A stretch of DNA of 64,000 bases from Bacteroidia bacterium (lineage in GTDB: Bacteria; Bacteroidota; Bacteroidia; SXHM01), in NCBI GenBank assembly GCA_050186075.1, contig JBFWYU010000012.1, positions 41,420 through 105,419 on the forward strand. The letters are read 5' to 3'. The notes below the pieces were generated by a model. The model saw only the letters and a list, made by a program, of their open reading frames with translations, had not been told where the DNA came from and did no database searches. The position numbers and the translations under genes were made by a program. Positions 15,901 to 33,608 of the stretch are shown in pieces (position 1 is the first letter of the stretch; every line of letters starts with the position of its first letter).

Positions 15901-15921
15901 CACAATGTAGATTTTAATACT

Positions 15922-15951
15922 AAAAAGGGGCTGTATTTTCAGCCCCTTTTT
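15922..15951 (+). terminator. Rho-independent terminator after adhesin 1 (bidirectional-looking)
   Basis: AAAAA GGGGCTG tatttt CAGCCCC TTTTT: a 7-bp GC-rich stem flanked by an A-run and a T-run, 22 nt after the stop. Confidence 0.8.
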
Positions 15952-15968
15952 AGTTAATATCATAGAAT

Positions 15969-17426
15969 ATGATAAATAAAATATACGGCTTAGACACTCG
16001 TTCAATTTCAGCTTTCAGGCTTTTATTGTCAGTCTTTATTGCAGCAGAATTTATACTGATGGTGTTGGGCAATTTCCATGACATCTATAGTCCGGAAACT
16101 GGCGTCTTGGGGAATTGTTTTGCTGAAGGCTATCAATCTAATTATAAAAAAATTTCAGCGATATTTTCAATTCAGACAGATGGTACAATGAAATTTTTTA
16201 TGGGTAGCATAATATTTACAATGCTGTTGGTTGCCGCAGGTTTTTATTCACAATTTTTAGCATTGGTCGGTTGTATTTTCTTGTGGCTTTTTTTTAGCCG
16301 TTATCAATTACTTTATTTCGGATGGGAAATGTATGCTTCCGTGATGTTATTCTGGCTTATTCTTGTTCCTTCTAAATGGTCGGAAGGCAAGGAATATCGC
16401 TCTCCGTTAGCATTTGCTTTACTTTTTCAGATTGCAATTATCTATTTCTACAATGGAATTTCAAAGAATGGTGAACTTTGGATGAGTGGAAAGGCAGTTG
16501 AAAGTTTCCTCTCAGAAGTTGATAAAGCACGCCCGGCTGCTGACTGGCTGATAGAAAAACCTGTGCTTACATCTGTTTTAACATATTTAACACTCGTAAT
16601 TGAACTTGGAATTGTCATCTTGTTTTTTATTCCTGTTCACTCAAAAAAATTACGCTATCTGTGCTCTTTTTTAATTTTTTCTTTGCATTGGGGTGTAGAT
16701 ATTTTTGTTGATGTGGGAAATTTCAAGTACGTAGCAACGGCAGTTTCAATTTTGCTGTTACCCGGAGATGCATGGGATTGGCTTGCAATAAAATTTTCTT
16801 TTCTGAAAAAAATTAAAAGAATAAAAATACCTGATTACACATTAGCGGTTCACGCCAAAGTAGAAAAAATACTTGCAATTTCACTTTGCGTTTTCATTGT
16901 GTTTGTCAATCTCTCACAAACCAATTTTTCAGGTACAAACGATAGAATGAAACAAGTTGTTGCGATTTTAAATCTGGATAGGTTCTTCAAAAAGATTAAT
17001 CATCATGCGTTGCCGCAGTGCTCTTTTTTTTCGCAATACTGGCACTTATATTCCCCCGATCCGCCAGGTGAAACAGGATGGATGCAGGTTGAATTTATAA
17101 CCTTAAACAACGATACAGTAGCGGTTTTCAATGGAAAGCCGTTGAGGGAAAACCGATTTCATTCTGTTGTGCAGCGTAACCTGTTTAATTATTTGCTTTT
17201 AAAAAAAGGACGAAATAAAAAAGATCAGATAGCTGAAAGGTGCGTGCTCATGCGTGAAATAAAGTTGTGGAATAAAGGTTCAAATCCTGAAATCAGTTCT
17301 GCACAACTAGTTATTTATAACAGAGTTTATGAACCAGAGAAATGGAAAAATAATTTACAGCCGGGGTTCACAAGAATACCTTATAAAGTGATTGATATTA
17401 ATTATAAGTCACATGGTGTGAAATAG
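15969..17426 (+). CDS. HTTM-domain (vitamin-K-dependent gamma-carboxylase / SdpB-like) polytopic membrane protein
   Basis: 485 aa. N-terminus GLDTRSISAFRLLLSVFIAAEF, then LFFSRYQLLYFGWEMYASVMLFWLILVPS, LFQIAIIYFYNGISKNGELWMSGKAV, LTLVIELGIVILFFIP and FSLHWGVDIFVDVGNF. Order and spacing match my memory of HTTM family blocks. The extra ~190-aa C-terminal region was not recognised. Confidence 0.65.
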   Translation: MINKIYGLDTRSISAFRLLLSVFIAAEFILMVLGNFHDIYSPETGVLGNCFAEGYQSNYKKISAIFSIQTDGTMKFFMGSIIFTMLLVAAGFYSQFLALVGCIFLWLFFSRYQLLYFGWEMYASVMLFWLILVPSKWSEGKEYRSPLAFALLFQIAIIYFYNGISKNGELWMSGKAVESFLSEVDKARPAADWLIEKPVLTSVLTYLTLVIELGIVILFFIPVHSKKLRYLCSFLIFSLHWGVDIFVDVGNFKYVATAVSILLLPGDAWDWLAIKFSFLKKIKRIKIPDYTLAVHAKVEKILAISLCVFIVFVNLSQTNFSGTNDRMKQVVAILNLDRFFKKINHHALPQCSFFSQYWHLYSPDPPGETGWMQVEFITLNNDTVAVFNGKPLRENRFHSVVQRNLFNYLLLKKGRNKKDQIAERCVLMREIKLWNKGSNPEISSAQLVIYNRVYEPEKWKNNLQPGFTRIPYKVIDINYKSHGVK

Positions 17427-17496
17427 TCAATTTTATTGGGCAAATACACACCATTTCTTAATTGAATCTTAATCATCGTTATAGTTATGCTTTTGA

Positions 17497-17504
17497 TATA
17501 TTTG
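17497..17504 (+). promoter_or_regulatory. Candidate Bacteroidota -7 box (TATATTTG) upstream of the LRR gene
   Basis: Matches TAnnTTTG and lies 39 nt upstream of the ATG at 17543. No convincing -33 TTTG was seen. Confidence 0.3.
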
Positions 17505-17542
17505 CTGAATTCCTTTTCAAATATTAATATTTTCCAATTACA

Positions 17543-18490
17543 ATGAAAAAAAATATTCCATCAGTAGTAAAACTTCAGTTCTTATTTCTGTTGTTTTTCG
17601 GCTGCTTTTCTGCAATTGCGCAGGAAGATCGCTCTTATATTAAATTATCTAATCCTGCTTACAAGGAGATACCCAATCATCATACTCCTGTCTCGAAGTA
17701 CGGCAATACAGTAACGTTTGCTAATCTTGAAATAGCATTAAAAAACCCTGATGCTTATTTTGCGGCAAATTTCTATAATTCAGCTTTGACAGAAGTTCCG
17801 GAAGAAATATTCCTGTTCCCGAATTTAAGAGAAATTGACCTTTCGCATAATTCAATTTCAGTTTTGCCTGATAAATTTAAAGAGTTGCAGAAACTCAAAG
17901 AACTACATCTCGCAGATAATAAAATAACATACGTTGGTTCTGAAATTACTTCGTGCCGCAGTCTTGAAGTATTGCAGTTGCGCAATAACCCGCTGAAAAC
18001 GGTGAGTAAAGAAATAGGTCAGATGAGTAGTTTGAAAGAATTATGGATTGAGAACACAGACCCAAGCTGTGTTCTTCCGCAGGAAATTTGGAACTTAAAT
18101 AACATTCAGAAATTAAGATTAATGAGCGCCAACCTTACTTTTATTCCTTCTGCAATTTCTGAGTTCAGTATGTTGGATGAAATTTGCTTATCAGGCAATG
18201 TTATAACTGCTATACCTGATGAAATTTACTCGCTTAAAAGTTTAACCTATTTAAACCTTGGTAACAATAAAATAACCACAATTTCATCGTTGGTAAAAAA
18301 CCTTGAACACTTGGATTATCTGGGAGTTTACGGAAATCCGGTCTCTCAATTACCTGATGAAATTGCCAGTCTAAAAGAACTTTCTTTTTTAAGTTGTTGG
18401 TTTACTAATTTACCAAACAGTGAAATTGAAAAAGCAAAAGCAGCTTTACCCCAAGCAGAAGTACACGCTATAAATACTGACCTTCATTAA
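17543..18490 (+). CDS. Secreted leucine-rich-repeat (LRR) protein
   Basis: Signal peptide MKKNIPSVVKLQFLFLLFFGCFSAIAQ, followed by about 10 LxxLxLxxNxIxxIPxEI repeats (LREIDLSHNSISVLPDKF, LKELHLADNKITYV, LTYLNLGNNKITTI and others). The stop is only 9 nt before adhesin 2's ATG. Confidence 0.8.
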   Translation: MKKNIPSVVKLQFLFLLFFGCFSAIAQEDRSYIKLSNPAYKEIPNHHTPVSKYGNTVTFANLEIALKNPDAYFAANFYNSALTEVPEEIFLFPNLREIDLSHNSISVLPDKFKELQKLKELHLADNKITYVGSEITSCRSLEVLQLRNNPLKTVSKEIGQMSSLKELWIENTDPSCVLPQEIWNLNNIQKLRLMSANLTFIPSAISEFSMLDEICLSGNVITAIPDEIYSLKSLTYLNLGNNKITTISSLVKNLEHLDYLGVYGNPVSQLPDEIASLKELSFLSCWFTNLPNSEIEKAKAALPQAEVHAINTDLH

Positions 18491-18499
18491 TCTTCCAAA

Positions 18500-21400
18500 A
18501 TGTTAAAGAAATTTTTACTTTTTTTCGCTTCCGCTATTCTTTTTTTTACGAATAGTTTTTCGCAGAATGTTACTGTTGAGATAGACGGAGATAATTTATA
18601 TTATTTTGAATCGAGTTGCGCAGACTGCAATGGAAACCCTGACCCGCGCTGGCGTGCACGTGTGTATTCACCAAGCGGACCGTATGACTGGAACGTTGAC
18701 CGTGACGGTGTTTGTGGTTGGTCAGGAAATACCAATTATGGCTGGGTTGCTCCTCAAACACAAGCATCTAATGCTACAATGACAATGCAGTTAAATGGAT
18801 GGGAATCAGATGGAGTATTTTGCGGTGGAGATGACTATAACTGCGGTGGCTATTCAACTGTAGGAACAGTACAGATTGATGCAAATCCGCCATGCCAATG
18901 GAATTATCAAAATCATGGTAGATGGTGCGGGGGCGGAGGTTATTATGAAATACAGTGGAGTTATTACTGGTATTATCAAACCATTAATTCAGGTTCAATT
19001 AACGGAACACAAACCATTTGTTCCGGTGGAGACCCAACAACGTTGGGTAATGCTTCCAGTGGCTCAACTTGGGTAAACTATTATTGGCAATACAGCGATG
19101 ACAGCGGTGGCTCATGGACAACAATTGGAGGTGCAACAGGCGCAACGTATGATCCACCTGCAGGCTTAACAAATACGCGTTGGTACAGGCGTGTGGCTTC
19201 TACCTGTGGGGGAGCTGCTGATGCTCCTACATCACCTGTAGTTGTTACGGTCAACACATTATCTGTTGCGCCTACAGGAATTACAGGTACTACCACTATC
19301 TGTAATGGCAACAGCACAACATTAACCCTAACCGGTGGATTTGCAGGTACAGGGGCAACTGCACAATGGTTTACAGGTTCATGCGGAGGAACTTCTGCGG
19401 GCACAGGTAATAGCATAACCGTTTCACCAACAACTACAACTACTTATTTTGTCCGTTATTCCGGAACTTGCAATACCACTACGTGTGCAAGCACAACGGT
19501 AACAGTTAACACCCTTTCCACAGCACCAACAGGTATTACCGGTACCACCACTATTTGTAACGGAAGCAGCACCACACTTACGCTTTCAGGTGGAAGTGCA
19601 GGAACGGGAGCAACAGCACAGTGGTTCACCGGTTCATGCGGAGGAACTTCTGCGGGAACAGGCAATAGTATTACGGTTTCACCGACAACTACCACAACTT
19701 ATTTTGTCCGCTATTCAGGAACTTGCAACACCACTACCTGTGCAAGTGTAACTGTAACTGTAAATACATTATCGGTAGCTCCAACCGGAGCCACCGGTGT
19801 TACCACCATTTGCAACGGAAGCAGCACAACATTAACAGTGTCAGGAGGAAGTGCAGGAACTGGCGCAACAGCTCAATGGTTCACCGGTTCATGCGGAGGA
19901 GCTTCTGCGGGTACCGGAAATAGCATTAACGTTTCACCGACAACTACAACAACTTATTATGTCCGTTATTCGGGAACATGCAATACCACAACGTGTGCAA
20001 CCGTAACCGTAACTGTAAATACGTTATCAGTTGCTCCAACGGGAGCAACCGGAACAACCACCATTTGTAACGGAGGCAGCACTACATTAACAGTAGCAGG
20101 AGGCAGCGCAGGTACAGGAGCAGTGGCAGAATGGTTTACTGGTTCATGTGGTGGTACTTTAGCCGGAACAGGAAATAGTATTACCGTTTCGCCAGGCACA
20201 ACCACAACTTATTTTGTTCGTTATGCAGGAACGTGTAATACAACAGGATGTGGAAGTGTTGTAGTAACAGTAAATACACTTTCTGTTGCACCAACGGGAG
20301 CAACGGGCACTACTACAATTTGTAACGGAAGCAGCACAACGCTTACTGTTGCCGGAGGAAGCCCAGGCACGGGAGCTGTAGCAGAATGGTTTACCGGTTC
20401 ATGCGGAGGAACTTCAGCAGGAACAGGAAACAGTATCACCGTTTCACCGACAACAACAACAACTTATTATGTTCGTTATGCAGGAACATGTAATACCACT
20501 TCATGCGGAACAGTAACAGTAACAGTAAATACATTATCTGTTGCGCCTGCAGGCATCACAGGAACTACTACCATCTGCAACGGTAACAGTACCACATTAA
20601 CCGTTTCAGGAGGCAGTGCAGGTACAGGGGCGGTGGTAGAATGGTTTAGCGGCTCATGCGGAGGAACTTCAGTCGGAACAGGTAACAGCGTTACGGTTTC
20701 ACCAACAACCACTACAAATTATTATGTACGCTACGCAGGAACTTGTAACACCACAACTTGTGCCAGCACAACCGTAACAGTTAATACACTCTCGGTAGCA
20801 GCAACAGGTATCAGCGGAGATGTAACAATCTGTACCGGAAGTCCTACAACACTTTCAGTTGTTGGCGGCTCACTAGGTACGGGTGCTACATGGCAGTGGT
20901 ACACCGGTTCATGTAACGGAACAAGTGCAGGAACAGGAACTTCAATTACTGTAAGTCCTGTATCTACCACCACGTATTATGTAAATGCAGTAGGAACTTG
21001 CAATACTACAGTTTGTCAAAGCGTTGCAGTAAACGTAAGTGTGTTGCCTAATGGAAACATCACAGGAACAACTGCAATTTGCATCGGACAATCAACTACG
21101 CTCACGTTTAATTTAACTGCAGGGTCAGGACCTTACGATGTTGTTTACACGGATGGTTCAACTAATTTTCCGCTTAACGGAATCAATTCAGGTCATACTA
21201 TTTCAGTAACTCCGGGTTCAACAACAGCCTATTCCTTTGTATCAATTACAGATGCAAATACCTGCTTGAGGAATTCCGGTTTCGGAGCTTCTGCAACAGT
21301 TACGGTTAATCCTTTGCCCGTAGTAACGTTTGCTTCATTCGGACCTTATTGCGTTAATAGTGCGGCTATATCTCTTTCCGCTTTTGGCTCACCTGCGGGA

Positions 21401-24400
21401 GGTTTGTTTTCAGGCCTCGGAGTAACAGGACCACAAGGTTCACAAACGTTTGTACCTTCAAGTGCCGGAGTGGGAACACATACACTCACATACACTTATA
21501 CAAACGGAAACAATTGCACAAGTTCTGCAACAAGAAACGTTACAGTTAATGCACTTCCGGTTGTAACATTTACAAATCCGGGAGGTCCATACTGTGCCAA
21601 CCAATCAACTCCTGTTGCGCTATCAGGTTCTCCTTCAGGAGGCACATTCAGTGGAAATGGCGTAAGTGGAAACTCATTCATTCCGGCTAATGCAGCGGTA
21701 GGAAATAACGTTCTTACTTACACTTATACCGATGGAAACGGTTGCACCAATACAGCACAACAAACGGTTGTTGTAACAGGACTTCCTCTTGTGACCTTCA
21801 GCGGACTTGCAGGACCTTATTGCGTAAGTCAGACTACACCTGTGTTACTTACAGGAAATCAAACAGGCGGCACGTTTTCGGGACCAGGTATTAGCAACCT
21901 CGGCAGCGGAACAGCAAACTTTACACCTTCTCTTGCTACCACCGGAGTTCATAACATAACCTTCACCTATACGGATGGAAACGGTTGTACTAATTCACAA
22001 ACACAATCGGTACAGGTTGTTGCTCTTCCTCTGGTAAGCATCAGCGGATTGGCCGCTTCTTATTGTGTAAGCAATGCTGCGGTTCAACTCACTGGTTTTC
22101 CTTCAGGCGGAACATTTAGCGGAACTCCTGCCGTAACGTCAGGCGGTTTATTCTCACCATCAACAGGTGAAGGAAATTATACGATTACTTACACGTACAC
22201 CAACGGAAACGGCTGTACTAACAGCACTTCAGTATCTACAGTAGTGAATGCACTCCCTGTCGTTTCGTTTTCCGGTTTTGCAAACCCTGCTCAATATTGC
22301 CAGAATGCTGCGGTAGTAAATTTAACAGGAAGTCCTGTTGGCGGAACGTTCAGCGGACAAGGTGTTACAAGCGGAGGTGTGTTCACTCCTTCAACAGCAG
22401 GATTAGGAACGCATACTATTACTTACAGTTATTCAGATGGAAACGGCTGTGCTAATACATCAACTCAATCGGTAACAGTAGTTGCAGTTCCAACAGTAAG
22501 CTTTACCGGCTTGGTTGGTGATTATTGCGTGAACGATGCTTCTGTAACATTAACAGGAAATCAATCCGGAGGAACATTCTCCGGTCCCGGAATAACCGAC
22601 AACGGAAACGGAACGGCTTCATTTAGCCCAACGGCAGCCGGCATTGGAGGCTCTTACGGAATTACCTACACCTACACAGATGGTAACGGTTGCTCAGGAA
22701 CTCAAACACAACAAACGGTTGTTCATCCGATGCCGGTTGTTGCTTTCAGCGGACTGAATGTAGCATATTGTGTGGATGCAAGTATTTCGCTGCTTACCGG
22801 TAGTCATGCCCCGGGCGGTTCATTTATCGGAACAGGTATTACCGACAACGGAAACGGAACAGCAACCTTTGATCCTGCTGCTGCCGGGGTGGGAGGGCTT
22901 TATGCAATCACCTATTCATACACTGATGTGTTCGGTTGTTCTTCTTCTATCAGCGAGAATACCTTGGTGAATGATACACCAAACGTTTCTTTCACAGGAT
23001 TGCACGACATCTGCATTGACCAGCCTGCTTTGATATTGACAGGAATTCCTCCTGGAGGTATCTTCAGCGGAAACGGTGTAAGCGGCAATGCTTTTTATCC
23101 AAGCCTTGCAGGTTTGGGAGTACAAACTGTAACCTATTATTATAACGATGGTAATGGTTGCGATGCATCCTATTCTGACTCAGCCCGCGTGTATGACATT
23201 CCGCAAATTACTGCGCAGCCAAATGATGTGCAGGTGTGCCCGGGTGATGCTGCTTCATTTAGTGTATCTGCTTTTGGTTTGGGTATAACCTACCAATGGT
23301 ATGTGAATGACGGAAACGGATTTGTAGTATTGAACAACGGAGGTATTTACAGCGGTGCAACATCAAGCACACTCTCTATCTCTGCGGTTCCGCCAACCTT
23401 AGATGGTTATCAGTTTAATTGTGTGGTAACGGGAGCAACCTGTCTTACTTCCACCACTTCTAACACAGTAACCATTATTGAAAATCCTTCACCAACCATC
23501 AATACTCAGCCTGTTGATTTTGCAGCCTGTGCCGGTGATAATGCTGTGTTCAGTGTTAGTGCATCTGGTACAAGTTTAACCTATCAGTGGCAGGTGAATA
23601 CCGGAGGCGGTTGGGTAAACGTAACCAATGGTGGTGTTTACAGCGGAGCATTAACCAATACATTAACCATTACCGGTTTCCCGGTAGGCATGGATGGATA
23701 CTTATACCAATGTGTTGTTACAGGAACTATCAATTGCACATCTAACAGCACTTCAAATCCTGCTGAACTGAATGTAACAACCTCGCCTAATATTGTTACC
23801 CAACCCGTAACACAAAATATTTGCGAAGGCGATAATGCAGTGTTTACGGTTACTGCACAAGGTTCAGGTTTATCCTACCAATGGCAGGAAAACACCGGAA
23901 GCGGTTTTGTAAACGTAATTAACGGTGGTGCCTACAGCGGAGCAACAACTGCAACTTTAACCGTTGCAGGAGTTATCAGCGGAATGGATGGTTACCAATA
24001 CCAAGCTATTGTTTCAGGTTCTTTCTGCGCGAATACTTCTACTACTAATACCGTCTTAATCAACATCACCACTTCACCATACATTGCTCAGCAGCCTGTT
24101 GATGCGTATGTATGTCCTACCGATCCTGCATCATTCAGTGTATCTGTTCAGGGAACCGGAATTACCTATCAGTGGCAGGTGAACAACGGAAGCGGCTGGG
24201 TGAACGTAACCAACACCGGAGTTTATTCAGGTGCAACATCTGCTACCCTGAATATTTCAAGTGTATTATCTAACATGGATAGCTACGAATACCGTTGCAT
24301 GGTGAACGGAACGTTCTGTTCAGGAACATCCACTTCATTGGTAGGAATTATCCACATCAACGGAGCACCTGTAATTACACAGCAACCAACCGATATGAAC

Positions 24401-27400
24401 TATTGCGTTGGTGATAATGCTGCTTTCACAGTAAATGCCAGCGGAACAGGATTAACTTACCAGTGGCAGGTTAACAATGGCAGCGGCTGGGTTGACTTAG
24501 TGAACGGAATTAATTACAGCGGAGTAAACAATTCTACCTTGAATATTCTTGCTGCACCGCTTTCATTTGATGGTAATCTTTACCGTGTTGTTGTTTCAGG
24601 AAGTATCAACTGTTCGGGAACTGTGACATCTGATGAGGTAATCTTCAACGAAGATCCTAATCCTTTCATCAGTTCACAACCTGTTGACCAATATGTCTGC
24701 ACAGGCGATAATGCTGTATTCAGCGTTACTGCAAGCGGCAGCGGATTGACTTACCAGTGGCAGGTGAACACAGGCGGAGGTTTTGTAAACGTAACCAACG
24801 GTGGTGTATACAGCGGTGCAACAACTTCAACGCTTAACATTACAGGTGTTATTGCAGGCATGGATGGTTACACCTATCAGTGTATAATCAACGGTACTAT
24901 CTGCACAGGAACTTCCATTACCAACATTGTTACTTTACACGAAACAACATCGCCTTATATTTCTGTTCAGCCGCAAGACCAATCGGTTTGCATCGGTGAT
25001 AACCTGGCGATGACAGTAACCGCAAACGGAAGTGGATTGACTTATCAGTGGCAGGTGAACACCGGAAGCGGTTTTGTAAACGTAACCGATGGTGGTGTTT
25101 ACAGCGGTTCTACTACTTCTGCGCTCATTATTGCAGGTGCAACGGTAGGAATGAATAACTACCAGTATCAGGTTATCATCAACGGAACTTCTTGTCCTGA
25201 TGCCTCTACTTCAAATGCAGTAACATTATATGTAGGACAAAGTCCTATGATTATTACCGACCCGGTAACAATGGCGGTGTGCGATGACTTTGATGCATCG
25301 TTCAGCGTAACAACCTTGGGCAACAACCTTACTTATCAGTGGCAGGTAAATACCGGAAGCGGTTTTGTTGATGTTGTTAATGGCGGAGTTTATTCCAACG
25401 CAACTACCACAACACTTAACATAACCGGAGCCGATGTTTCTATGAATGGCTACCAGTATCAGGTTATAGTAACAGGTTCTATCAACTGTGCGCTTACTTC
25501 TACTTCTGCAAGTGCGGTGTTAACGGTAAATCCGTTGCCGGTGGTAAGCATTTCAGGCTTGCTCACACAATATTGTGTGAATGCACCTGTCGTAACATTA
25601 ACAGGTGTTCCCTCTGGAGGAACGTTCAGCGGAACAGGAGTAACCGGAACCACTTTCTCACCTGCAACCGCAGGTGTTGGCGGGCCGTATCCTGTATTGT
25701 ATGAATACACCGATGGAAACGGATGCTACAACAACGCTACTATAAACGTAACCGTTGTTGCACAACCTGTAGTAAGTTTCACCGGATTGGCAGGTCCATA
25801 TTGTATCAACGACAATACACCTGTTGCACTCACCGGCTCACCTTCGGGCGGAACATTCAGCGGAACAGGAGTTACAGGAAATACATTTATTCCTTCCATT
25901 GCGCAATTGGGCAATAACTCGGTTACCTATACTTACACCAACCTGAACGGTTGTGTAAATTCAGTAACGCAGGTTGCAGTGGTTAACAATATTCCCGTTG
26001 TTTCTTTCAGCGGTTTAAATCCTGAATATTGTGAAGATGATAACACCGTAATAGTTCTTACCGGAAACAATGCAGGTGGAACATTTACTTCCAATGGTGC
26101 AGGGTTAACCGACAACGGAAACGGAACAGCTTCTTATGTTGCATCTGTTGCAGGTGCCGGCACACATACCATCACCTACACCTACACCGATGGCAATGGT
26201 TGTACTAATTCAGAGACACAATCGGTATTGATAAATACACTTCCTGCTCTTACATTCAGCGGACTTGCAAATCAGTATTGTGTTGTTGATCCGTTGACAA
26301 CGCTTACGGGTTTCCCTGGAGGCGGAACCTTCAGCGGACCGGGAGTAAGCGGTAACTCGTTTGACCCTGCAGTTGCAGGATTAGGCTTGCATACCATCCT
26401 CTATCAATACACAGATGGTGTAACAGGTTGTTCAAATTCTGTTGCTCAGAATACCATTGTATATGACCAGCCGGTGGCTGTTGCAGGAAATGGTGGTGAT
26501 GTATGCGGACTGGCTTTCAGTTTAGCAGCTACACCAAGCGTTGGAACAGGAACATGGACTGCAACAGGTCCGGGCACAGCAACCTATGCACCAAATGCTA
26601 ATGATGCCAATGCAACGGCAACGGTAAGTACTCACGGAACCTACACATTCACCTGGACCGAGAACAACAACGGTTGCTCAGATGCGGCTTCGGTTACGGT
26701 TAACTTTTACGACCAGCCTGTAGTAAGCGCAGGGCAGGGTGGAAGCGAGTGCGATCTTGACTTCACCTTCACCGGAACAACCAACCTGGGAACAGGAACT
26801 TGGTCTGCTGCAGGCCCGGGTACTGCGTTCTATACTAATAGCAGCAGCCCTACTTCATCGGTTATGGTTTCCACTTCGGGTGTTTATACCTTCACATTCA
26901 CGGTAACCAACGGAACCTGCCAGACATCTGATCAGGTAACGGTTAACTTCAATACACTGCCGGTTGCAGATGCAGGTGATGACGGAAGCGAGTGCGATCT
27001 TGATTTTGTTTTCAATGCTGCACCAACCATTGGAACCGGAACATGGACTCAGCTTTCAGGTCCCGGAACTTCAATCTTTAGTCCCGATGCAAACGACCCT
27101 GCGGCAACGGTTACCGTTACTGCGGTGGGAACGTATGTATTTGACTGGACCGAAGACCATAACGGTTGTACCAGTTCAGACGATGTATCGGTGGTGTTCC
27201 ATGCATTGCCTGTGGTAAGCATTTCTAATCTGAATGCTGCTTATTGCATCAACGAAACTGCTGTAATCAACATGACCGGCACACCTGCGGGTGGAACATT
27301 CTCCGGGCCGGGAGTAGTAGGAACAGTGTTCACGCCTTCTGTTGCCGGTGCGGGAATACACACGGTTGATTATACCTATACCGATAATTTCGGATGTACC

Positions 27401-29467
27401 AATTCTACTTCTGAACAGGTAGAGGTGTATGCAGTAGCATCTGCTTCTGTAAGCGGACTTACTTCACCGTATTGTTCCAACAATACCACACCGGTAATTC
27501 TGAGCGGAACACCTTCGGGCGGTACCTTCAGCGGCCCCGGAATTTCAGGAAACAGTTTCACGCCTTCACTGGCAGGAATTGGAACATTTGATATTGATTA
27601 CATCGCAACGGATGGAAACGGTTGCTTCAGTTCAACTACAGAAACAGTTACCGTAAATGATATTCCGGTAGTAACGTTCACAGGACTTGCTGCCGAATAT
27701 TGTGCCGATGCTGCGGATGTAACATTGACATCAACTCCGAGCGGTGCACAGTTTTCAGGTCCGGGAATTTCGGGTAACACCTTTAGTCCTTCAACTGCAG
27801 GAGTGGGAACACATACCATTGTTTGCACCTACACGGATGGCAACAGCTGCACCAACAGCACTTCACAAACAGTTACGGTTCGTCCGCTGCCGGTTGTGAA
27901 TGTTACGCCTGCGGGTACTGCAGCCTTCTGCGTTGGCGGAAGTGTGCTGGTATCAGCAAGCAATGGCTTTGCATCGTACACCTGGTCCAACGGAAACACC
28001 AATCAAAGTTTCCTTGCCAACCAAACAGGACAATACACCGTTGATGTAGTGGATGTTTACGGTTGCACAGCAACATCTGCTCCTGTAAACGTTATTGTAA
28101 ATCAGTTGCCAGTTGTTGATTTGGGTAACGATACTACCATTTGCACAGGCAACAGCGTAACGCTGGATGCCGGAAACTTTGTATCGTATGTATGGAGCCC
28201 AACGGGCGCAACCTCACAAACCATTGTTGCGGCCAACAATGGCGCATACATGGTTACTGTAACCGATGCCAACGGATGCGTGGGCAGCGATCAGATTGGT
28301 GTAACGGTTGCTTCATTGTTACAGCCAACGGTTACTTCGTCCAGCAATACCAATACCTTTTGTCAGGGAGGCAGTTTAATATTGGATGCAGGTCCGGGCT
28401 ATGCTTCGTATGCATGGTCTGACGGAATTACATTCTCTCAAACGATGACCGTAACACAAGCCGGTTTCTTCAGCGTATTTGTAACTGATAACAGTGGTTG
28501 CACAGGGGCATCCACTCCTGTTTCGGTTACCATGTTCACGGTGCCGGCACCTATTGTTTTTGCTGATGGGCCGCTTGCATTCTGTCCGGGCGAAAGTGTA
28601 ACACTTAGCGCAGGTATTGGCTATAGTTCGTATGCATGGTCTCCTGGTGGCGAAAGCACTTCATCGATTACTGTTGACCAGGAAGGCAGTTATGTGCTCT
28701 CGGTTCAGGATCAGAACAGCTGTCCGGGAACTTCTGATACAATTGAGGTAACAGTATTTGACGTAACTACACCTGTTATTCAGGCTGACGGACCATTGCA
28801 GTTCTGCGCAGGCGACCAGGTTATACTCAGTGTTCAGGGAAGCTATGCTTCTTATCTGTGGACAAGCGGTTCTACTACTCCCGAAATTCTGGTTACCGAA
28901 AACGGGCAGTATGGTGTAACCGTTATGGATTTGAATGGCTGTATCGACTCATCGCAGACGGTAAACCCGGTAACGGTTACTGTTTGGGATCCTTTGGCTT
29001 TCATTCTTGAATCGGGCGACTCGCTTACCTGCACTCCTGCCTTTGCAGGTTATCAGTGGTATCTGAATGATACCTTGATACCGGGTGCAAACAGTCAGGT
29101 GCATGTTGCTCAGGAAAGCGGAAACTACAGCGTAGAGGTTACCGATGACCATGGTTGCACAGGCGGTTCAAACATTATTGAACACAGCATGGTGGGTATT
29201 CAGGATGTTGCTATTGATGCCAGCATCAGTATTTATCCTAACCCTACGCGTGGCGTGTTTACGTTCAATGCCCTGTTCAGCGGTTACGAAAACCTGAGAA
29301 TAGAATTGACCAATGCTCTTGGCCAGCTGATTATTCCGGTGGAAGATGTAAAAGATGTAATGACGGTGAAACGTGATTACAACCTGAACCATCTGCCAGA
29401 CGGTATGTATATGCTCACAATAAGAACGGAGAAAGGAAGCGTTACCAAACGCATTATTAAGAACTAA
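18500..29467 (+). CDS. Giant (3655 aa) modular Ig-like-repeat cell-surface protein with T9SS type-A C-terminal sorting domain, colinear paralogue of 7108-15900
   Basis: Single open frame with signal peptide MLKKFLLFFASAILFFTNSFSQ. It has a unique Cys/Trp-rich N-domain, then the same repeat classes in the same order as adhesin 1, plus a gene-specific 3 x 82-aa block. CTD ISIYPNPTRGVFTF...TEKGSVTKRIIKN. A strong terminator follows. Confidence 0.9.
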   Translation: MLKKFLLFFASAILFFTNSFSQNVTVEIDGDNLYYFESSCADCNGNPDPRWRARVYSPSGPYDWNVDRDGVCGWSGNTNYGWVAPQTQASNATMTMQLNGWESDGVFCGGDDYNCGGYSTVGTVQIDANPPCQWNYQNHGRWCGGGGYYEIQWSYYWYYQTINSGSINGTQTICSGGDPTTLGNASSGSTWVNYYWQYSDDSGGSWTTIGGATGATYDPPAGLTNTRWYRRVASTCGGAADAPTSPVVVTVNTLSVAPTGITGTTTICNGNSTTLTLTGGFAGTGATAQWFTGSCGGTSAGTGNSITVSPTTTTTYFVRYSGTCNTTTCASTTVTVNTLSTAPTGITGTTTICNGSSTTLTLSGGSAGTGATAQWFTGSCGGTSAGTGNSITVSPTTTTTYFVRYSGTCNTTTCASVTVTVNTLSVAPTGATGVTTICNGSSTTLTVSGGSAGTGATAQWFTGSCGGASAGTGNSINVSPTTTTTYYVRYSGTCNTTTCATVTVTVNTLSVAPTGATGTTTICNGGSTTLTVAGGSAGTGAVAEWFTGSCGGTLAGTGNSITVSPGTTTTYFVRYAGTCNTTGCGSVVVTVNTLSVAPTGATGTTTICNGSSTTLTVAGGSPGTGAVAEWFTGSCGGTSAGTGNSITVSPTTTTTYYVRYAGTCNTTSCGTVTVTVNTLSVAPAGITGTTTICNGNSTTLTVSGGSAGTGAVVEWFSGSCGGTSVGTGNSVTVSPTTTTNYYVRYAGTCNTTTCASTTVTVNTLSVAATGISGDVTICTGSPTTLSVVGGSLGTGATWQWYTGSCNGTSAGTGTSITVSPVSTTTYYVNAVGTCNTTVCQSVAVNVSVLPNGNITGTTAICIGQSTTLTFNLTAGSGPYDVVYTDGSTNFPLNGINSGHTISVTPGSTTAYSFVSITDANTCLRNSGFGASATVTVNPLPVVTFASFGPYCVNSAAISLSAFGSPAGGLFSGLGVTGPQGSQTFVPSSAGVGTHTLTYTYTNGNNCTSSATRNVTVNALPVVTFTNPGGPYCANQSTPVALSGSPSGGTFSGNGVSGNSFIPANAAVGNNVLTYTYTDGNGCTNTAQQTVVVTGLPLVTFSGLAGPYCVSQTTPVLLTGNQTGGTFSGPGISNLGSGTANFTPSLATTGVHNITFTYTDGNGCTNSQTQSVQVVALPLVSISGLAASYCVSNAAVQLTGFPSGGTFSGTPAVTSGGLFSPSTGEGNYTITYTYTNGNGCTNSTSVSTVVNALPVVSFSGFANPAQYCQNAAVVNLTGSPVGGTFSGQGVTSGGVFTPSTAGLGTHTITYSYSDGNGCANTSTQSVTVVAVPTVSFTGLVGDYCVNDASVTLTGNQSGGTFSGPGITDNGNGTASFSPTAAGIGGSYGITYTYTDGNGCSGTQTQQTVVHPMPVVAFSGLNVAYCVDASISLLTGSHAPGGSFIGTGITDNGNGTATFDPAAAGVGGLYAITYSYTDVFGCSSSISENTLVNDTPNVSFTGLHDICIDQPALILTGIPPGGIFSGNGVSGNAFYPSLAGLGVQTVTYYYNDGNGCDASYSDSARVYDIPQITAQPNDVQVCPGDAASFSVSAFGLGITYQWYVNDGNGFVVLNNGGIYSGATSSTLSISAVPPTLDGYQFNCVVTGATCLTSTTSNTVTIIENPSPTINTQPVDFAACAGDNAVFSVSASGTSLTYQWQVNTGGGWVNVTNGGVYSGALTNTLTITGFPVGMDGYLYQCVVTGTINCTSNSTSNPAELNVTTSPNIVTQPVTQNICEGDNAVFTVTAQGSGLSYQWQENTGSGFVNVINGGAYSGATTATLTVAGVISGMDGYQYQAIVSGSFCANTSTTNTVLINITTSPYIAQQPVDAYVCPTDPASFSVSVQGTGITYQWQVNNGSGWVNVTNTGVYSGATSATLNISSVLSNMDSYEYRCMVNGTFCSGTSTSLVGIIHINGAPVITQQPTDMNYCVGDNAAFTVNASGTGLTYQWQVNNGSGWVDLVNGINYSGVNNSTLNILAAPLSFDGNLYRVVVSGSINCSGTVTSDEVIFNEDPNPFISSQPVDQYVCTGDNAVFSVTASGSGLTYQWQVNTGGGFVNVTNGGVYSGATTSTLNITGVIAGMDGYTYQCIINGTICTGTSITNIVTLHETTSPYISVQPQDQSVCIGDNLAMTVTANGSGLTYQWQVNTGSGFVNVTDGGVYSGSTTSALIIAGATVGMNNYQYQVIINGTSCPDASTSNAVTLYVGQSPMIITDPVTMAVCDDFDASFSVTTLGNNLTYQWQVNTGSGFVDVVNGGVYSNATTTTLNITGADVSMNGYQYQVIVTGSINCALTSTSASAVLTVNPLPVVSISGLLTQYCVNAPVVTLTGVPSGGTFSGTGVTGTTFSPATAGVGGPYPVLYEYTDGNGCYNNATINVTVVAQPVVSFTGLAGPYCINDNTPVALTGSPSGGTFSGTGVTGNTFIPSIAQLGNNSVTYTYTNLNGCVNSVTQVAVVNNIPVVSFSGLNPEYCEDDNTVIVLTGNNAGGTFTSNGAGLTDNGNGTASYVASVAGAGTHTITYTYTDGNGCTNSETQSVLINTLPALTFSGLANQYCVVDPLTTLTGFPGGGTFSGPGVSGNSFDPAVAGLGLHTILYQYTDGVTGCSNSVAQNTIVYDQPVAVAGNGGDVCGLAFSLAATPSVGTGTWTATGPGTATYAPNANDANATATVSTHGTYTFTWTENNNGCSDAASVTVNFYDQPVVSAGQGGSECDLDFTFTGTTNLGTGTWSAAGPGTAFYTNSSSPTSSVMVSTSGVYTFTFTVTNGTCQTSDQVTVNFNTLPVADAGDDGSECDLDFVFNAAPTIGTGTWTQLSGPGTSIFSPDANDPAATVTVTAVGTYVFDWTEDHNGCTSSDDVSVVFHALPVVSISNLNAAYCINETAVINMTGTPAGGTFSGPGVVGTVFTPSVAGAGIHTVDYTYTDNFGCTNSTSEQVEVYAVASASVSGLTSPYCSNNTTPVILSGTPSGGTFSGPGISGNSFTPSLAGIGTFDIDYIATDGNGCFSSTTETVTVNDIPVVTFTGLAAEYCADAADVTLTSTPSGAQFSGPGISGNTFSPSTAGVGTHTIVCTYTDGNSCTNSTSQTVTVRPLPVVNVTPAGTAAFCVGGSVLVSASNGFASYTWSNGNTNQSFLANQTGQYTVDVVDVYGCTATSAPVNVIVNQLPVVDLGNDTTICTGNSVTLDAGNFVSYVWSPTGATSQTIVAANNGAYMVTVTDANGCVGSDQIGVTVASLLQPTVTSSSNTNTFCQGGSLILDAGPGYASYAWSDGITFSQTMTVTQAGFFSVFVTDNSGCTGASTPVSVTMFTVPAPIVFADGPLAFCPGESVTLSAGIGYSSYAWSPGGESTSSITVDQEGSYVLSVQDQNSCPGTSDTIEVTVFDVTTPVIQADGPLQFCAGDQVILSVQGSYASYLWTSGSTTPEILVTENGQYGVTVMDLNGCIDSSQTVNPVTVTVWDPLAFILESGDSLTCTPAFAGYQWYLNDTLIPGANSQVHVAQESGNYSVEVTDDHGCTGGSNIIEHSMVGIQDVAIDASISIYPNPTRGVFTFNALFSGYENLRIELTNALGQLIIPVEDVKDVMTVKRDYNLNHLPDGMYMLTIRTEKGSVTKRIIKN
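19253..21037 (+). repeat. 7 x 255-bp (85-aa) in-frame tandem class-1 repeats within adhesin 2
   Basis: Units start exactly at 19253, 19508, 19763, 20018, 20273, 20528 and 20783, each beginning with NTLS(V/T)A. The unit is NTLSVAPTG.TGTTTICNG.STTLT..GGSAGTGA.A.WFTGSCGGTSAGTGNSITVSPTTTTTY.VRY.GTCNTT.C...TVTV. Confidence 0.9.
21308..23197 (+). repeat. 8 x ~78-aa class-2 modules within adhesin 2
   Basis: Eight GG(L/T/S/I)F(S/I)G cores were counted. Long stretches are near-colinear with 8263-9906 of adhesin 1. Confidence 0.7.
23198..25528 (+). repeat. 8 x ~97-aa class-3 Ig-like (YQWQ) modules within adhesin 2
   Basis: Eight (I/L)(T/S)YQW(Y/Q) cores were counted. 2331 nt / 8 = 291 nt per unit. 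Confidence 0.8.
25529..26464 (+). repeat. 4 class-2 (~78-aa) modules within adhesin 2
   Basis: NPLPVVSISGLLTQYCV...GGTFSGTG...YEYTDGNGC and three following units. Confidence 0.7.
26465..27202 (+). repeat. 3 x 82-aa adhesin-2-specific module (DQPV..AG.GG.(V/E)C.L.F...........GTGTW...GPGT........)
   Basis: DQPVAVAGNGGDVCGLAFSLAATPSVGTGTWTATGPGTATY..., DQPVVSAGQGGSECDLDFTFTGTTNLGTGTWSAAGPGTAFY... and TLPVADAGDDGSECDLDFVFNAAPTIGTGTWTQLSGPGTSIF... No counterpart in adhesin 1. Confidence 0.75.
27203..27880 (+). repeat. 3 class-2 (~75-aa) modules within adhesin 2
   Basis: ALPVVSISNLNAAYC...GGTFSGPG and two following units. Confidence 0.65.
27881..29214 (+). repeat. 6 class-4 (~75-aa) modules within adhesin 2
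   Basis: RPLPVVNVTPAGTAAFCVGGSVLVSASNGFASYTWSNGNT... and following units, colinear with 14317-15651. Confidence 0.65.
29215..29464 (+). other. T9SS type-A C-terminal sorting domain of adhesin 2
   Basis: ISIYPNPTRGVFTFNALFSGYENLRIELTNALGQLIIPVEDVKDVMTVKRDYNLNHLPDGMYMLTIRTEKGSVTKRIIKN. Confidence 0.8.
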
Positions 29468-29491
29468 GCCAATATAGTTTGTAAAAGAGAA

Positions 29492-29522
29492 AGAGCCCCG
29501 CCAATGGCGGGGCTCTTTTTTT
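29492..29522 (+). terminator. Rho-independent terminator after adhesin 2
   Basis: AGAGCCCCGCC aat GGCGGGGCTCT followed by a T7 run: an 11-bp perfect stem, 25 nt after the stop. Confidence 0.85.
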
Positions 29523-29536
29523 GCTCAATTTATAGA

Positions 29537-29848
29537 AACACGGAACTCCGTGTTGGTATAAATTGAACGCTTTGGTACAACACGGAACTGCGTGTTGGTA
29601 TGAATTGAATGCTTCAGTATAACACGGAACTCCGTGTTGGTATATATCAATCGCTTTGGTATAACACGGAACTCCGTGTTGGTATAAATCAAACGTTTTG
29701 GTGTAACACGGAACTCCGTGTTGGTATGAATTGAATGTTTTGGTGTAACACGGAATCCCGTGTTAATATAAATCAAACGTTTTAATGTAACACGAAGCTC
29801 CGTGTTGGTCTGAATGGAGTGATTTGGTATAACACAGAACTCCGTGTT
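29537..29848. repeat. Non-coding tandem array of 8 units with exact 42-bp period, each with the 18-bp palindrome AACACGGAACTCCGTGTT plus a 24-bp semi-conserved linker
   Basis: Palindrome copies start at 29537, 29579, 29621, 29663, 29705, 29747, 29789 and 29831. Copies 1, 3, 4 and 5 are perfect; copy 2 has one mismatch; copies 6-8 are progressively degenerate. Linkers resemble each other (GGTATAAATCAAACGTTTTGGTGT-like). Confidence 0.9.
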
Positions 29849-29935
29849 TATATAATTAAGACAATACGCTCAATGTTTGGTTTTGCAAATACGAATATGC
29901 GATAGTTGCAAATATTATCTTTATGTAAAGAAAAA

Positions 29936-29961
29936 GGGTTGCACACTTGCAGCCCTTTTTT
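29936..29961 (+). terminator. Terminator-like hairpin with T-run, 41 nt upstream of the LTD gene
   Basis: GGGTTGCA cact TGCAGCCC TTTTTT: an 8-bp stem including one G-U pair. No ORF lies between this and the previous terminator. Confidence 0.45.
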
Positions 29962-30001
29962 GTTTCCCCCTAATCTTTAACTTGCAGCCCCAAAGACCCC
30001 T

Positions 30002-32641: not shown

Positions 32642-32650
32642 AAGCAGTTT

Positions 32651-32675
32651 GTCACCCTGAGCGTAGTCGAAGGGC
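32651..32675. repeat. Short intergenic motif GTCACCCTGAGCGTAGTCGAAGGGC
   Basis: Sits in the 40-nt gap between the convergent LTD and porP/sprF genes. I recognise this as a motif type recurrent in Bacteroidota intergenic DNA. Only one copy is present in this window. Confidence 0.35.
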
Positions 32676-32681
32676 TAACAA

Positions 32682-33608
32682 TTAAAAATTTACCTGTTCA
32701 ACCCCTTTCCTTTTCTCTGCTTTATTCTTGCAGTTAAATCGTGCAATAAAGTTCAGTTCATGGCTTCCACCGGTTTTACTATTTCCAAGATTTGAAACGG
32801 TTATGTCATAACTATATCCCGCAGAAAACCATTTGCCTTTATAACCAAGCAGAAAGATAAGTGCATCTGTATTATTAGTATTGAAACGTGTTCCAAAACC
32901 TACCTTAACTCCGTAAGCATAAAAGACAAGTGTTGGAAGAAACTGTTGAAATTCTTGCTGCTGCTGATAAAATATAGAAGGTGAAATTTTTACTTTTTCT
33001 GCTATATCTGCTACATAAGAAAGATGAGCAGTATATTTTATTGGAAGTTTTGATGTATATGAATCTATGAAACTTTCGTTGGGTTGTGTAAGATGATGAA
33101 ATGCGACACCATAAACAAAATTTCCATGTGTAATCAGTAATGCCGCATTGATATCAAAGTTGTTTACCTTACCTCTCATTTCAGCAGGTTGTATTGGCCA
33201 ACCAAAATTATAGTTGCTCCAATCTGTTAATTTTGATCGCCATCCTGCTTCTATTGCAGGACTTATAAGAAGCTTTTTCTTAAACAATCTGAACGCAGGA
33301 GAGTAGGTGAACATTGCCAAATGAGTTTGTAATGTTCCGTCACCTGCTCTGTCATACTGGTAATTAACAGCGATGCTTCCCATGATTTGTCTTACAAACT
33401 GGTCGTAAGAAAAGTTTATAGTTTGGTAGTTGCCATCAATTTTTGGCCATTGTAAACGATAAGCAGTAGAAATTCTTGAGCAGCCTTCATATCCTGCAAA
33501 CGCAGGATTAAGATAAATTGGTGAACTGAAGTACTGTGTAAATTGAGGGTCTTGCGCTTTAGTGCTAAGGGAAAGTAGTACAGAAAATATAATCAGGCTT
33601 AACCTCAT
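32682..33608 (-). CDS. PorP/SprF family type IX secretion system outer-membrane protein
   Basis: Signal peptide followed by AQDPQFTQYFSSPIYLNPAFAGYEG...YRLQWPKIDGNYQT, the signature N-terminus of TIGR03519 PorP/SprF. 308 aa, beta-barrel-like alternating pattern, C-terminal F. Confidence 0.8.
   Translation of the reverse strand: MRLSLIIFSVLLSLSTKAQDPQFTQYFSSPIYLNPAFAGYEGCSRISTAYRLQWPKIDGNYQTINFSYDQFVRQIMGSIAVNYQYDRAGDGTLQTHLAMFTYSPAFRLFKKKLLISPAIEAGWRSKLTDWSNYNFGWPIQPAEMRGKVNNFDINAALLITHGNFVYGVAFHHLTQPNESFIDSYTSKLPIKYTAHLSYVADIAEKVKISPSIFYQQQQEFQQFLPTLVFYAYGVKVGFGTRFNTNNTDALIFLLGYKGKWFSAGYSYDITVSNLGNSKTGGSHELNFIARFNCKNKAEKRKGVEQVNF

Follow-up and report, generated by a model that had tools for sequence, protein, structure and literature searches.

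What would a bacterial relative of GGCX, the gamma-glutamyl carboxylase that depends on vitamin K, be doing beside the gene for a giant secreted adhesin? The question is raised by a 64,000-nucleotide stretch of contig JBFWYU010000012.1 (assembly GCA_050186075.1; hereafter, the window), which derives from a landfill metagenome and whose host is an uncultured Bacteroidota bacterium. Three open reading frames (ORFs), all on the plus strand, encode in succession a polytopic membrane protein of 485 amino acids (aa) with HTTM-like sequence blocks, a leucine-rich-repeat (LRR) protein with a signal peptide, and an adhesin of 3655 aa. We refer to the last of these as adhesin 2 and to a related protein encoded upstream as adhesin 1. 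The original prediction for this locus, made from the sequence alone, described the three ORFs, the HTTM blocks and the 9 nucleotides (nt) that separate the LRR stop codon from the adhesin 2 ATG, and all of these are confirmed. It went on to cast the HTTM protein as a candidate maturation enzyme for giant Cys/Thr-rich adhesins, with the LRR protein as a possible chaperone, anchor or partner, an interpretation that the results below support in part.

Bacterial HTTM/GGCX homologs number in the thousands, and a role has been assigned only for SdpB/YitO and MloH. What is new here is a putative GGCX-family enzyme with a defined set of partners, an undescribed adhesin head domain, and a predicted LRR-to-head operon that recurs as a unit of surface proteins exported by the Bacteroidota type IX secretion system (T9SS). 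The locus thereby supplies a concrete candidate substrate for a large and mostly uncharacterized bacterial enzyme family.

A membrane protein of the HTTM/GGCX superfamily

Searched as a single sequence, the 485-aa protein matches Pfam model PF05090 with an E-value of 3.8e-6 and 27.1 bits, 0.6 bit short of the curated cut-off of 27.7, and a search against NCBIfam returns no match. The family fares better than the single sequence. PF05090 is matched by 26 of 36 aligned family members, the best at 6e-11, while three of the 36 match LMF1 (lipase maturation factor, an HTTM relative) and two show weak matches to DUF5819, located in the C-terminal domain. A profile of the family, searched against 177,635 sequences of the PDB, finds GGCX chains only (E=1.3e-4). 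An AlphaFold2 model built without templates (predicted local distance difference test, pLDDT, 86; predicted template modeling score 0.87) gives the same answer in Foldseek, where ranks 1 through 16 are all GGCX (E=7e-7 to 5e-2) and the next fold appears at E=0.6; the alignment covers about 500 columns, C-terminal domain included, at a template modeling (TM) score of about 0.5. Together, the family-level Pfam matches, the profile search and the model secure the assignment: by sequence profile and predicted structure, the protein is a genuine member of the HTTM/GGCX superfamily, borderline only when Pfam is given the one sequence. The HTTM match on which the original prediction had made its reading depend was thus found, and the fold is that of GGCX.

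The protein divides into a transmembrane core (approximately residues 1-320) and a predicted periplasmic alpha/beta domain at the C-terminus (approximately residues 340-485), the latter carrying an invariant QYWHLYSPDPP motif. The motif is a tentative counterpart of the W390-H404 loop of GGCX; a profile of the C-terminal domain has no GGCX match in the PDB. Loops rich in Lys and Arg occur at residues 133-145, 221-229 and 277-290. Taken with homology to GGCX and the positive-inside rule, the arrangement of helices in the model would place K166, the putative catalytic residue discussed below, and the C-terminal domain on the periplasmic face. The gene call in the database record (P0001) is shorter, at 468 aa; conservation of the N-terminus among homologs favors the ATG at 15969.

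Gene neighborhood of the HTTM family

The tight subfamily to which the window protein belongs is rare. Among 5.8 billion proteins, a word-indexed search found 47 matches; a pattern scan that covered 185,579 species genomes yielded 12 loci, each in a metagenome-assembled genome (MAG) of an uncultured member of the Bacteroidota. Fetched loci were annotated by phmmer against the window proteins, and a locus was counted as informative when it was distinct, carried an intact HTTM gene and had enough flanking sequence. Eighteen loci qualify: the window, L001, L003, L004, L006, L008, L010, L012, L013, L015, L016, L017, L019, L021, L023, L024, L027 and L050. In every one of the 18, the HTTM gene is adjoined by an LRR ortholog (E=1e-52 to 1e-165) and then by a large T9SS cargo bearing the adhesin head described below, with identities to the window HTTM protein that range from 33 to 86%. 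Such an arrangement, unbroken across the set, is far beyond chance. The original prediction had anticipated that HTTM, LRR and giant cargo genes with a C-terminal sorting domain (CTD) would co-occur in related genomes, and they do so in all informative loci, down to 33% identity and with flipped orientations included; synteny with adhesins is therefore the rule.

The adjacency survives considerable rearrangement. In L006, L008 and L050 the HTTM gene is divergent from the LRR-cargo pair and still next to it, while its other flank is unrelated, with feoAB and an SprT-like gene or with a proline dehydrogenase gene. In loci of the L003/L004/L050 type the cargo ends in a type B CTD (CHU_C), with PorP/SprF and OmpA-like genes nearby, whereas the cargo in the window is of type A; the head is kept while the CTD switches from one type to the other. 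The cargo downstream of the LRR gene is far closer to adhesin 2 than to adhesin 1 (in L003, 1e-110 versus 7e-13; cargo in L016, L017 and L023 matches adhesin 2 only) because of this conserved head. The general theme of membrane modifiers paired with adhesins, as the original prediction framed it, must be narrowed to this extent: the conserved partner is not any giant Cys/Thr-rich adhesin but the head of adhesin 2, about 140 aa long and absent from adhesin 1.

The LRR protein itself matches Pfam models LRR_14 (1.3e-25), LRR_8 (2e-25) and LRR_4 (1.6e-23), while NCBIfam offers only generic LRR effector models, far under their cut-offs. Residues 1-26 form a signal peptide of the signal-peptidase-I type, cleaved between AIA and QE, in agreement with the secreted LRR protein originally described. 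When the N-termini of orthologs were compared, no conserved lipobox was found, and the protein has no T9SS CTD. LRR orthologs (E=1e-40 to 1e-165) lie directly 5' of a head-bearing adhesin gene in nearly all loci. In adhesin 2, in the LRR protein and in nearly all of their orthologs, the first residue past the predicted signal-peptidase-I site is Gln (window 18560-18565 and 17618-17623). Formation of N-terminal pyroglutamate on exported proteins is a habit of the Bacteroidota, which the post-cleavage Gln fits.

The adhesin head and a one-way association

Adhesin 2 is, from its sequence features, a T9SS cargo protein: it has a Sec signal peptide and a CTD, a PorP/SprF gene lies at 32682-33608, and other CTD proteins are encoded in the window. 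Pfam finds 13 Ig_7 stretches, together with Ig_3/I-set and cadherin-like repeats, and the Por_Secre_tail model at the C-terminus (Table 1), with conserved Cys residues in every stalk repeat. Adhesins 1 and 2 are 49-56% identical over about 2800 aa of stalk and CTD; their heads are unrelated. Alignment of orthologs shows that the adhesin 2 head extends for about 140 aa from the first mature residue (after SFS, beginning QNVTVEIDG) and includes seven conserved Cys residues and a C-terminal strand rich in Trp and Tyr (WSYYWYY). Its invariant residues, in precursor numbering, are E102, D104 and D112, with E37, D42 and D48 close to invariant. A profile of the head searched against the PDB and Pfam gives chance-level matches only (ovotransferrin and LRRNT_2, both E=0.03), and structure prediction from a two-sequence alignment yields no usable fold (pLDDT 35). 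Judged by these comparisons, the head is a previously undescribed adhesin domain and the conserved third partner of the HTTM and LRR proteins.

The association was also examined from the side of the head. A homolog search with the single sequence returned only one fragment of 165 aa, the word index apparently performing poorly on giant proteins, while a metagenome scan with an alignment of the head alone returned 21 loci. Where the head is at least 52% identical, the LRR gene is directly upstream in every locus with usable upstream sequence. An HTTM gene lies 5' of the LRR gene in L024 and L027 and is not adjacent in L028 and L035, that is, in two of the four testable loci; in its place are genes for a peptide chain release factor and a NUDIX protein (L028), or for an amine oxidase and a SpoIIM protein (L035). 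Heads at 40-49% identity (L036-L041 and L043) have neither LRR nor HTTM neighbors. The implication thus runs one way in the loci at hand: the HTTM subfamily always occurs with LRR protein and head, and LRR protein and head do not always occur with an adjacent HTTM gene. Because LRR-head pairs exist without an adjacent HTTM gene, and distant heads stand alone, the core operon would be LRR protein plus head-bearing adhesin, with HTTM a frequent accessory. The adjacency proposed in the original prediction stands, then, and the tightness of the three-gene unit does not. Among the distant heads, that of L036 lies near genes for a response regulator and an FAD monooxygenase, and that of L037 near genes for a di-heme cytochrome c peroxidase/MauG-like protein and an FG-GAP/ASPIC protein; the heads of L037-L040 have Tyr in place of the Cys equivalent to C132, with another Cys nearby.

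A natural deletion bears on which adhesin the HTTM protein serves. Locus L018 is 78-86% identical to the window at the nucleotide level and collinear with it on both sides (window 6860-16759, and 29912-32641 onward). Between them, 1.8 kb of unrelated DNA replaces window 16760-29911, which holds the C-terminal half of the HTTM gene, the LRR gene, adhesin 2 and a repeat array. The HTTM protein is cut at about residue 264 and survives as a stump of 282 aa, while adhesin 1 is intact. The deletion, one event in one MAG, lends modest support to the view that the HTTM protein belongs functionally with the LRR protein and adhesin 2, not with adhesin 1.

Distant HTTM relatives

An exhaustive HMMER search collects 9,860 clusters at E<=1e-3, of which 2,459 reach E<=1e-30; many of these have a length near 490 aa and are matched from end to end. 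In three loci of a distant branch (L046, L051 and L052), an LRR homolog (E=1e-22 to 1e-29) accompanies a divergent UbiA-family gene, the HTTM gene, and a gene for a PMT_2-like protein that overlaps the HTTM stop codon by 4 nt, and T9SS cargo is encoded nearby. The PMT_2-like protein is homologous (E=1e-21 to 1e-37) to the two membrane proteins with TPR repeats encoded upstream of adhesin 1 in the window, a point in favor of the theme of membrane modifiers with adhesins. In L047, a cargo that exceeds 2,900 aa and ends in a Por_Secre_tail domain (with a faint GBD_T9SS_assoc match as well) is followed by two back-to-back HTTM paralogs (6678-9542), the 437-aa one of which matches PF22777 (VKGC_lumenal_dom); the window protein has no such match. 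No clear cargo link is seen in the context of the HTTM gene of L048. The association of HTTM proteins with T9SS cargo, with LRR proteins and with membrane enzymes of the PMT_2-like kind thus extends beyond the tight subfamily, which lends some support to the original view of the locus as adhesins in the company of membrane-embedded modifiers.

The UbiA-family prenyltransferases of L046 (1282-2160) and L051 (6827-7822) are orthologous to each other (E=5e-47) and divergently oriented beside HTTM genes of two distinct clusters; in that branch they may be the source of a prenylated cofactor or carrier. As a lead for the window, this was set aside. The UbiA-family gene of the window (34779-35654) is unrelated to that of L046 (E=0.43), neither is assignable to MenA, and the adjacency of UbiA and HTTM is real in the L046/L051 branch only.

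These neighborhoods also bear on the possibility that the HTTM protein is a mere neighbor of its partners, acting on a lipid, a quinone or a glycan carrier, or with PMT_2-like glycosyltransferases, and that adjacency reflects shared ancestry within one Bacteroidota lineage. Every locus does come from related uncultured Bacteroidota, the LRR-head pair exists without HTTM, and the distant relatives stand beside UbiA and PMT_2-like genes (L046, L051) or show no obvious link to cargo (L048). The adjacency has nevertheless outlasted divergence to 33-35% identity, inversion of the HTTM gene in three loci, replacement of all other flanking genes and a switch in CTD type; the L046/L051 branch still has an LRR homolog and T9SS cargo nearby; and the HTTM gene is truncated in L018 exactly where the LRR gene and adhesin 2 are missing. 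We consider coincidental neighborhood quite improbable.

Comparison of the putative active site with GGCX

The HMMER alignment pairs residues of the window HTTM protein with those of GGCX as follows: K166 with K218, W171 with W223, E212 with D263, R229 with R276, H240 with H287, and F252 with F299. In GGCX, K218 is the general base that deprotonates vitamin K hydroquinone, W223 stacks on K218 and D263 is its relay partner; F299 stacks on CO2 in the CO2 pocket, while N159 and H160 hydrogen-bond the carboxylate of the substrate Glu, to which Y395 also binds (PMC12647623). We aligned 184 relatives (44 close ones and 140 drawn from other 50%-identity clusters) to the family model. Of the putative catalytic residues, K166 is shared by 183 of them, W171 by 182, E212 by 179 and F252 by 174. 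The Glu-binding residues present a different picture. Measured against the family profile, N159 and H160 lie within an insertion that adjoins W119-E120, and the position of E120 is acidic (Asp or Glu) in 180 of the 184 relatives; Y395 has only a tentative counterpart, F354, which is a Phe. By alignment, then, the quinol-activating and CO2 part of the GGCX site is retained and the Glu-binding part is not.

The candidate substrate points the same way. The head contains four Glu residues in 141 aa and adhesin 2 as a whole is 1.2% Glu, and we found no Gla-like motif, and no Glu-rich region or propeptide of the type seen in substrates that carry gamma-carboxyglutamate (Gla), in the head or in adhesin 2. 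Since the GGCX residues that bind Glu have no conserved counterparts and Glu is scarce in the head, classical, processive Gla formation by the window HTTM protein, a chemistry that the original prediction had entertained, is unlikely.

A true bacterial vitamin K-dependent carboxylase might take a less classical form, in which E37, E102 or the Asp cluster D42/D48/D104/D111/D112 of the head is carboxylated to create a Ca2+ site at the adhesin tip, with the LRR protein docking the substrate as the propeptide does for GGCX. The equivalents of K218, W223, D263 and F299 are all conserved, the invariant acidic cluster of the head recalls Ca2+-binding loops, and the menaquinones of the Bacteroidota would suit such an enzyme. 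The CO2-capture machinery has been argued to be conserved in bacterial orthologs, and MloH, a bacterial HTTM enzyme, carboxylates an aspartyl-derived carbon, which demonstrates that bacterial members of the family can carboxylate carbons other than that of Glu (PMC12647623). Set against this, N159, H160 and Y395 have no conserved equivalents, the acidic residue found in that region would disfavor an acidic substrate side chain, the head has neither Glu richness nor a Gla-like motif, and its acidic residues are equally conserved in loci that have no adjacent HTTM gene. Carboxylation of the acidic head residues therefore strikes us as a distinctly unlikely outcome.

A proposed role in adhesin maturation

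The reading that we favor, and hold tentatively at somewhat less than even confidence, is a three-part system in which a periplasm-facing, menaquinol-dependent enzyme modifies the head, or a complex of LRR protein and head, before type IX export. Its parts would be a membrane enzyme of the GGCX fold, a soluble periplasmic LRR protein, and a giant T9SS adhesin with a head rich in Cys and Asp. The LRR protein most likely binds the head in the periplasm, whether as holdase, as presenter or as a partner at the tip. From menaquinol (vitamin K2 hydroquinone) and O2, the HTTM protein would most likely produce a strong base or oxidant. Bacteroidota make and use menaquinones, members of the vitamin K2 family, so the putative cofactor is at hand. 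Covalent modification of the head or of the LRR-head complex would follow Sec export and precede type IX secretion; T9SS cargo folds in the periplasm before export, and an enzyme that faces the periplasm could thus reach it there. The head would emerge first from the Sec translocon, near the membrane, much like the propeptide and Gla region of GGCX substrates. There is precedent for bacterial HTTM enzymes with secreted or exported substrates, in SdpB with SdpC (PMC6818787) and in MloH. The reaction might carboxylate some residue other than Glu, bring about a different base-driven modification, or promote oxidative folding.

The last of these options can also be framed as an explanation of its own, in which the HTTM protein couples quinone redox to the formation or isomerization of disulfides in the head and the Ig_7 repeats and adds no new group, comparable to the proposed role of the related endoplasmic reticulum protein LMF1 or to VKOR/DsbB. 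A Cys-rich substrate is available, with seven conserved Cys residues in the head, conserved Cys residues in each stalk repeat, and Cys pairs in the Ig_7 repeats. The LMF1 matches in three members of the HTTM family fit as well, and maturation of SdpC by SdpAB, a case involving another bacterial HTTM protein, is said (Perez Morales et al. in 2013) to include a disulfide step. Fusions to thiol-disulfide oxidoreductase domains of the DCC type occur in other bacterial HTTM proteins (bioRxiv 10.64898/2026.08.19.745780). What is conserved in the window family, on the other hand, is the site for quinol deprotonation and the CO2 pocket of GGCX (Lys, Trp, Glu, Phe), and the family alignment contains no conserved Cys pair or CXXC motif. 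Adhesin 1, moreover, is equally Cys-rich and remains intact in L018, where the HTTM protein is truncated, and heads without an adjacent HTTM gene retain all of their Cys residues. We regard a role confined to oxidative folding as unlikely.

Menaquinol-dependent modification of the head, the reading favored here, must itself be weighed against a considerable list of contrary observations. The PF05090 score of the window protein is under the cut-off, its C-terminal 198 aa have no Pfam match at E<=1 (although the Foldseek alignment to GGCX spans the entire protein), and a profile restricted to the C-terminal domain fails to recover GGCX from the PDB. The N159/H160 and Y395 positions of GGCX are an insertion and a tentative Phe, respectively, and Glu is scarce in the proposed substrate. 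Neither a VKOR-like recycling enzyme nor men genes are seen within the window. Half of the testable LRR-head pairs lack an adjacent HTTM gene, and the more distant heads lack both partners. Finally, comparison of the head across loci reveals no residues conserved only where HTTM is linked, such as would mark candidate modification sites; the invariant set is equal across groups.

The same proposal has a bolder form, which we think doubtful: that this is the first bacterial protein-modifying system dependent on vitamin K (menaquinol), in which a GGCX-like enzyme, guided by the LRR protein, places a new modification (carboxylation of a non-Glu residue or other strong-base chemistry) on the adhesin tip and creates a binding site there. 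Were it true, the approximately 2,500 related clusters of bacterial HTTM proteins of about 490 aa would represent a large hidden family of periplasmic protein-modifying enzymes.

Relationship to characterized systems

Human GGCX is the sole relative of the window HTTM protein, in structure and in sequence, found in the PDB. Both combine a polytopic HTTM core with an extracytoplasmic C-terminal domain, the equivalents of K218, W223, D263 (as Glu), R276, H287 and F299 are conserved in the window family, and the presumed substrate domain is, in both cases, at the extreme N-terminus of a Sec-exported protein. The two nevertheless share only 12-13% identity, at a TM score of about 0.5, and differ in length (485 versus 758 aa). 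The Glu-binding N159/H160/Y395, the propeptide and the Glu-rich substrate of the Gla type are not present here, where we find instead an LRR partner and a menaquinone-making bacterial host, with no VKOR seen nearby. As substrate-binding residues and substrate type both differ, the window HTTM protein is, on present comparisons, not an ortholog of GGCX.

SdpB and YitO, encoded by the sdpABC and yitPOM operons of Bacillus subtilis, offer an organizational parallel: an HTTM membrane protein is encoded beside a secreted protein with a signal peptide, and SdpB is required for maturation of SdpC, giving a set of enzyme, helper and exported substrate (PMC6818787). SdpB has SdpA as its helper and, as its substrate, a small toxin precursor from which a 42-aa peptide is processed. 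In the window, an LRR protein would take the place of the helper, and the head of a T9SS adhesin of 3655 aa is the candidate substrate; the window HTTM protein also has its C-terminal domain fused. No SdpA-like or SdpC-like gene is found among the window neighbors, which are the LRR protein and the adhesin, and a toxin maturation system of the SdpB type was ruled out accordingly. MloH, a bacterial GGCX ortholog from the malonomycin pathway of Streptomyces, consists of an HTTM domain fused to a region corresponding to DUF5819, the model weakly matched by two members of the window family. Its substrate is a polyketide-peptide intermediate bound to a carrier, and it works within a biosynthetic cluster in a cytoplasmic or membrane setting, while the window locus has no nonribosomal peptide synthetase or polyketide synthase and its neighbors are exported.

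In the literature that we searched, no link was found between HTTM enzymes and either T9SS cargo or LRR partners. The sole mention found of an HTTM-type protein in Bacteroidota concerns Riemerella, in which imelysin has an iron-regulated "vitamin K-dependent gamma-carboxylase" as its neighbor, a different context.

The logic of the sprC-sprD-sprB-sprF locus of Flavobacterium johnsoniae, in which small accessory genes are co-transcribed just 5' of a giant repetitive T9SS adhesin, had been invoked as an analogy and is retained as a lead only. PorP/SprF-like genes do lie beside the cargo in several related loci. The LRR protein of the window, however, is defined by its coupling to a specific head, and adhesin 2 has a type A CTD where SprB has type B; the likeness is one of gene order.

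Predicted transcription units

Intergenic distances divide the three genes unequally, with 5-24 nt from LRR to adhesin in almost all loci and 40-400 nt from HTTM to LRR. Of 26 distinct loci, about 13 carry the Bacteroidota promoter motif TAnnTTTG within 150 nt 5' of the LRR gene, where about 0.05 would be expected (motif matches only); upstream of the HTTM gene it occurs in only two of about 18 loci. A sigma-70 promoter scan found 12 sites where 9.4 were expected, the consensus being uninformative for Bacteroidota.

The terminator that the original prediction placed after adhesin 1 is real by folding criteria (-25 kcal/mol, z=-7.8), since none of 200 shuffled sequences folds equally well, and the HTTM ATG follows it by some 15-18 nt. 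A terminator likewise separates upstream cargo from HTTM in related loci (-23 to -31 kcal/mol in L001, L015, L019 and L021), and usually none follows the HTTM gene; in the window, a fold scan finds no hairpin after the HTTM gene comparable to those of the two adhesins. The most economical reading of these signals is that the LRR gene and adhesin 2 form an operon with its own promoter, and that HTTM would be expressed at a lower level, through read-through of the adhesin 1 terminator or from an unrecognized promoter, its transcript running on into the LRR gene and adhesin 2. An Rfam search over 15800-30100 gave sub-threshold matches only, on the adhesin 2 terminator.

Other features of the window

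Coordinates of the principal features are collected in Table 1.

Table 1. Features of the HTTM-LRR-adhesin 2 locus and its upstream flank (window coordinates)
Feature	Position	Strand	Description
Two paralogous polytopic proteins of ~940 aa with C-terminal TPR repeats (PMT_2/TMTC-like)	1339-7018 (1339-4173, 4190-7018)	+	TPR Pfam matches; upstream of adhesin 1
Adhesin 1	7066-15900	+	2944-aa ORF; stalk and CTD as in adhesin 2, unrelated head
Adhesin 1 intrinsic terminator hairpin	15919-15954	+	15-bp stem, 6-nt loop, A-tract before, T-tract after
HTTM/GGCX-fold polytopic membrane protein	15969-17426	+	485 aa
K166 codon	16464-16466	+	putative catalytic residue
Candidate Bacteroidota -7 promoter box TATATTTG (TAnnTTTG)	17497-17504	+	motif scan; 46 nt 5' of LRR ATG
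Periplasmic leucine-rich-repeat protein (predicted)	17543-18490	+	315 aa; Pfam LRR models
Adhesin 2 ORF	18500-29467	+	3655 aa
Adhesin 2 signal peptide	18500-18562	+	residues 1-21, cleavage between SFS and Q; conserved domain from Q22 in ortholog alignment
Adhesin 2 head domain	18563-18985	+	mature residues 1-141; predicted all-beta
Adhesin 2 stalk	18986-29230	+	Ig_7, Ig_3, I-set, cadherin-like and PKD-like repeats (Pfam); paralogous to adhesin 1 stalk
Adhesin 2 type A T9SS C-terminal sorting domain (Por_Secre_tail)	29231-29458	+	PF18962, E=7.3e-11, residues 3578-3653
Adhesin 2 intrinsic terminator	29486-29522	+	-29.8 kcal/mol, z=-6.6

The ORF listed for adhesin 1 opens at a TTG codon; the true start is likely the ATG 14 codons in (MNRFIRVLSS...), which is followed by a typical signal peptide (window 7066-7107). 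The pair of TPR membrane proteins that precedes the Thr-rich adhesin 1 is itself preceded by a gene for a UDP-glucose/GDP-mannose dehydrogenase (228-1325), and the ortholog in L001 has a weak match to PMT_2, which gives the pair the look of TMTC/PMT-type glycosyltransferases.

Between the adhesin 2 terminator and the next gene, at 29537-29855, lies an array in which a 42-nt unit is repeated 7.6 times in tandem (79% matches; alternatively, super-units of 126 nt), with no match in Rfam. Every unit contains the palindrome AACACGGAACTCCGTGTT. The array lies at the right edge of the 13-kb segment missing from L018, where homology resumes at 29912. It might serve to bind a protein or mark a boundary of recombination.

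Beyond the array, 30002-32641 encodes a protein of 879 aa that combines lamin-tail domains (LTD) and Big_5 with a CTD of type B (CHU_C), so T9SS cargo of both types, A and B, is encoded side by side in the window. This gene is convergent with the PorP/SprF gene mentioned above (minus strand), and next to the latter lies a gene for a phosphoesterase with a Por_Secre_tail CTD (33630-34769, minus strand). Both of these minus-strand genes are present in the window and absent from L018, a second insertion or deletion between the two loci (window 32642-34799), across which the homology of L018 skips from 32641 to 34800.

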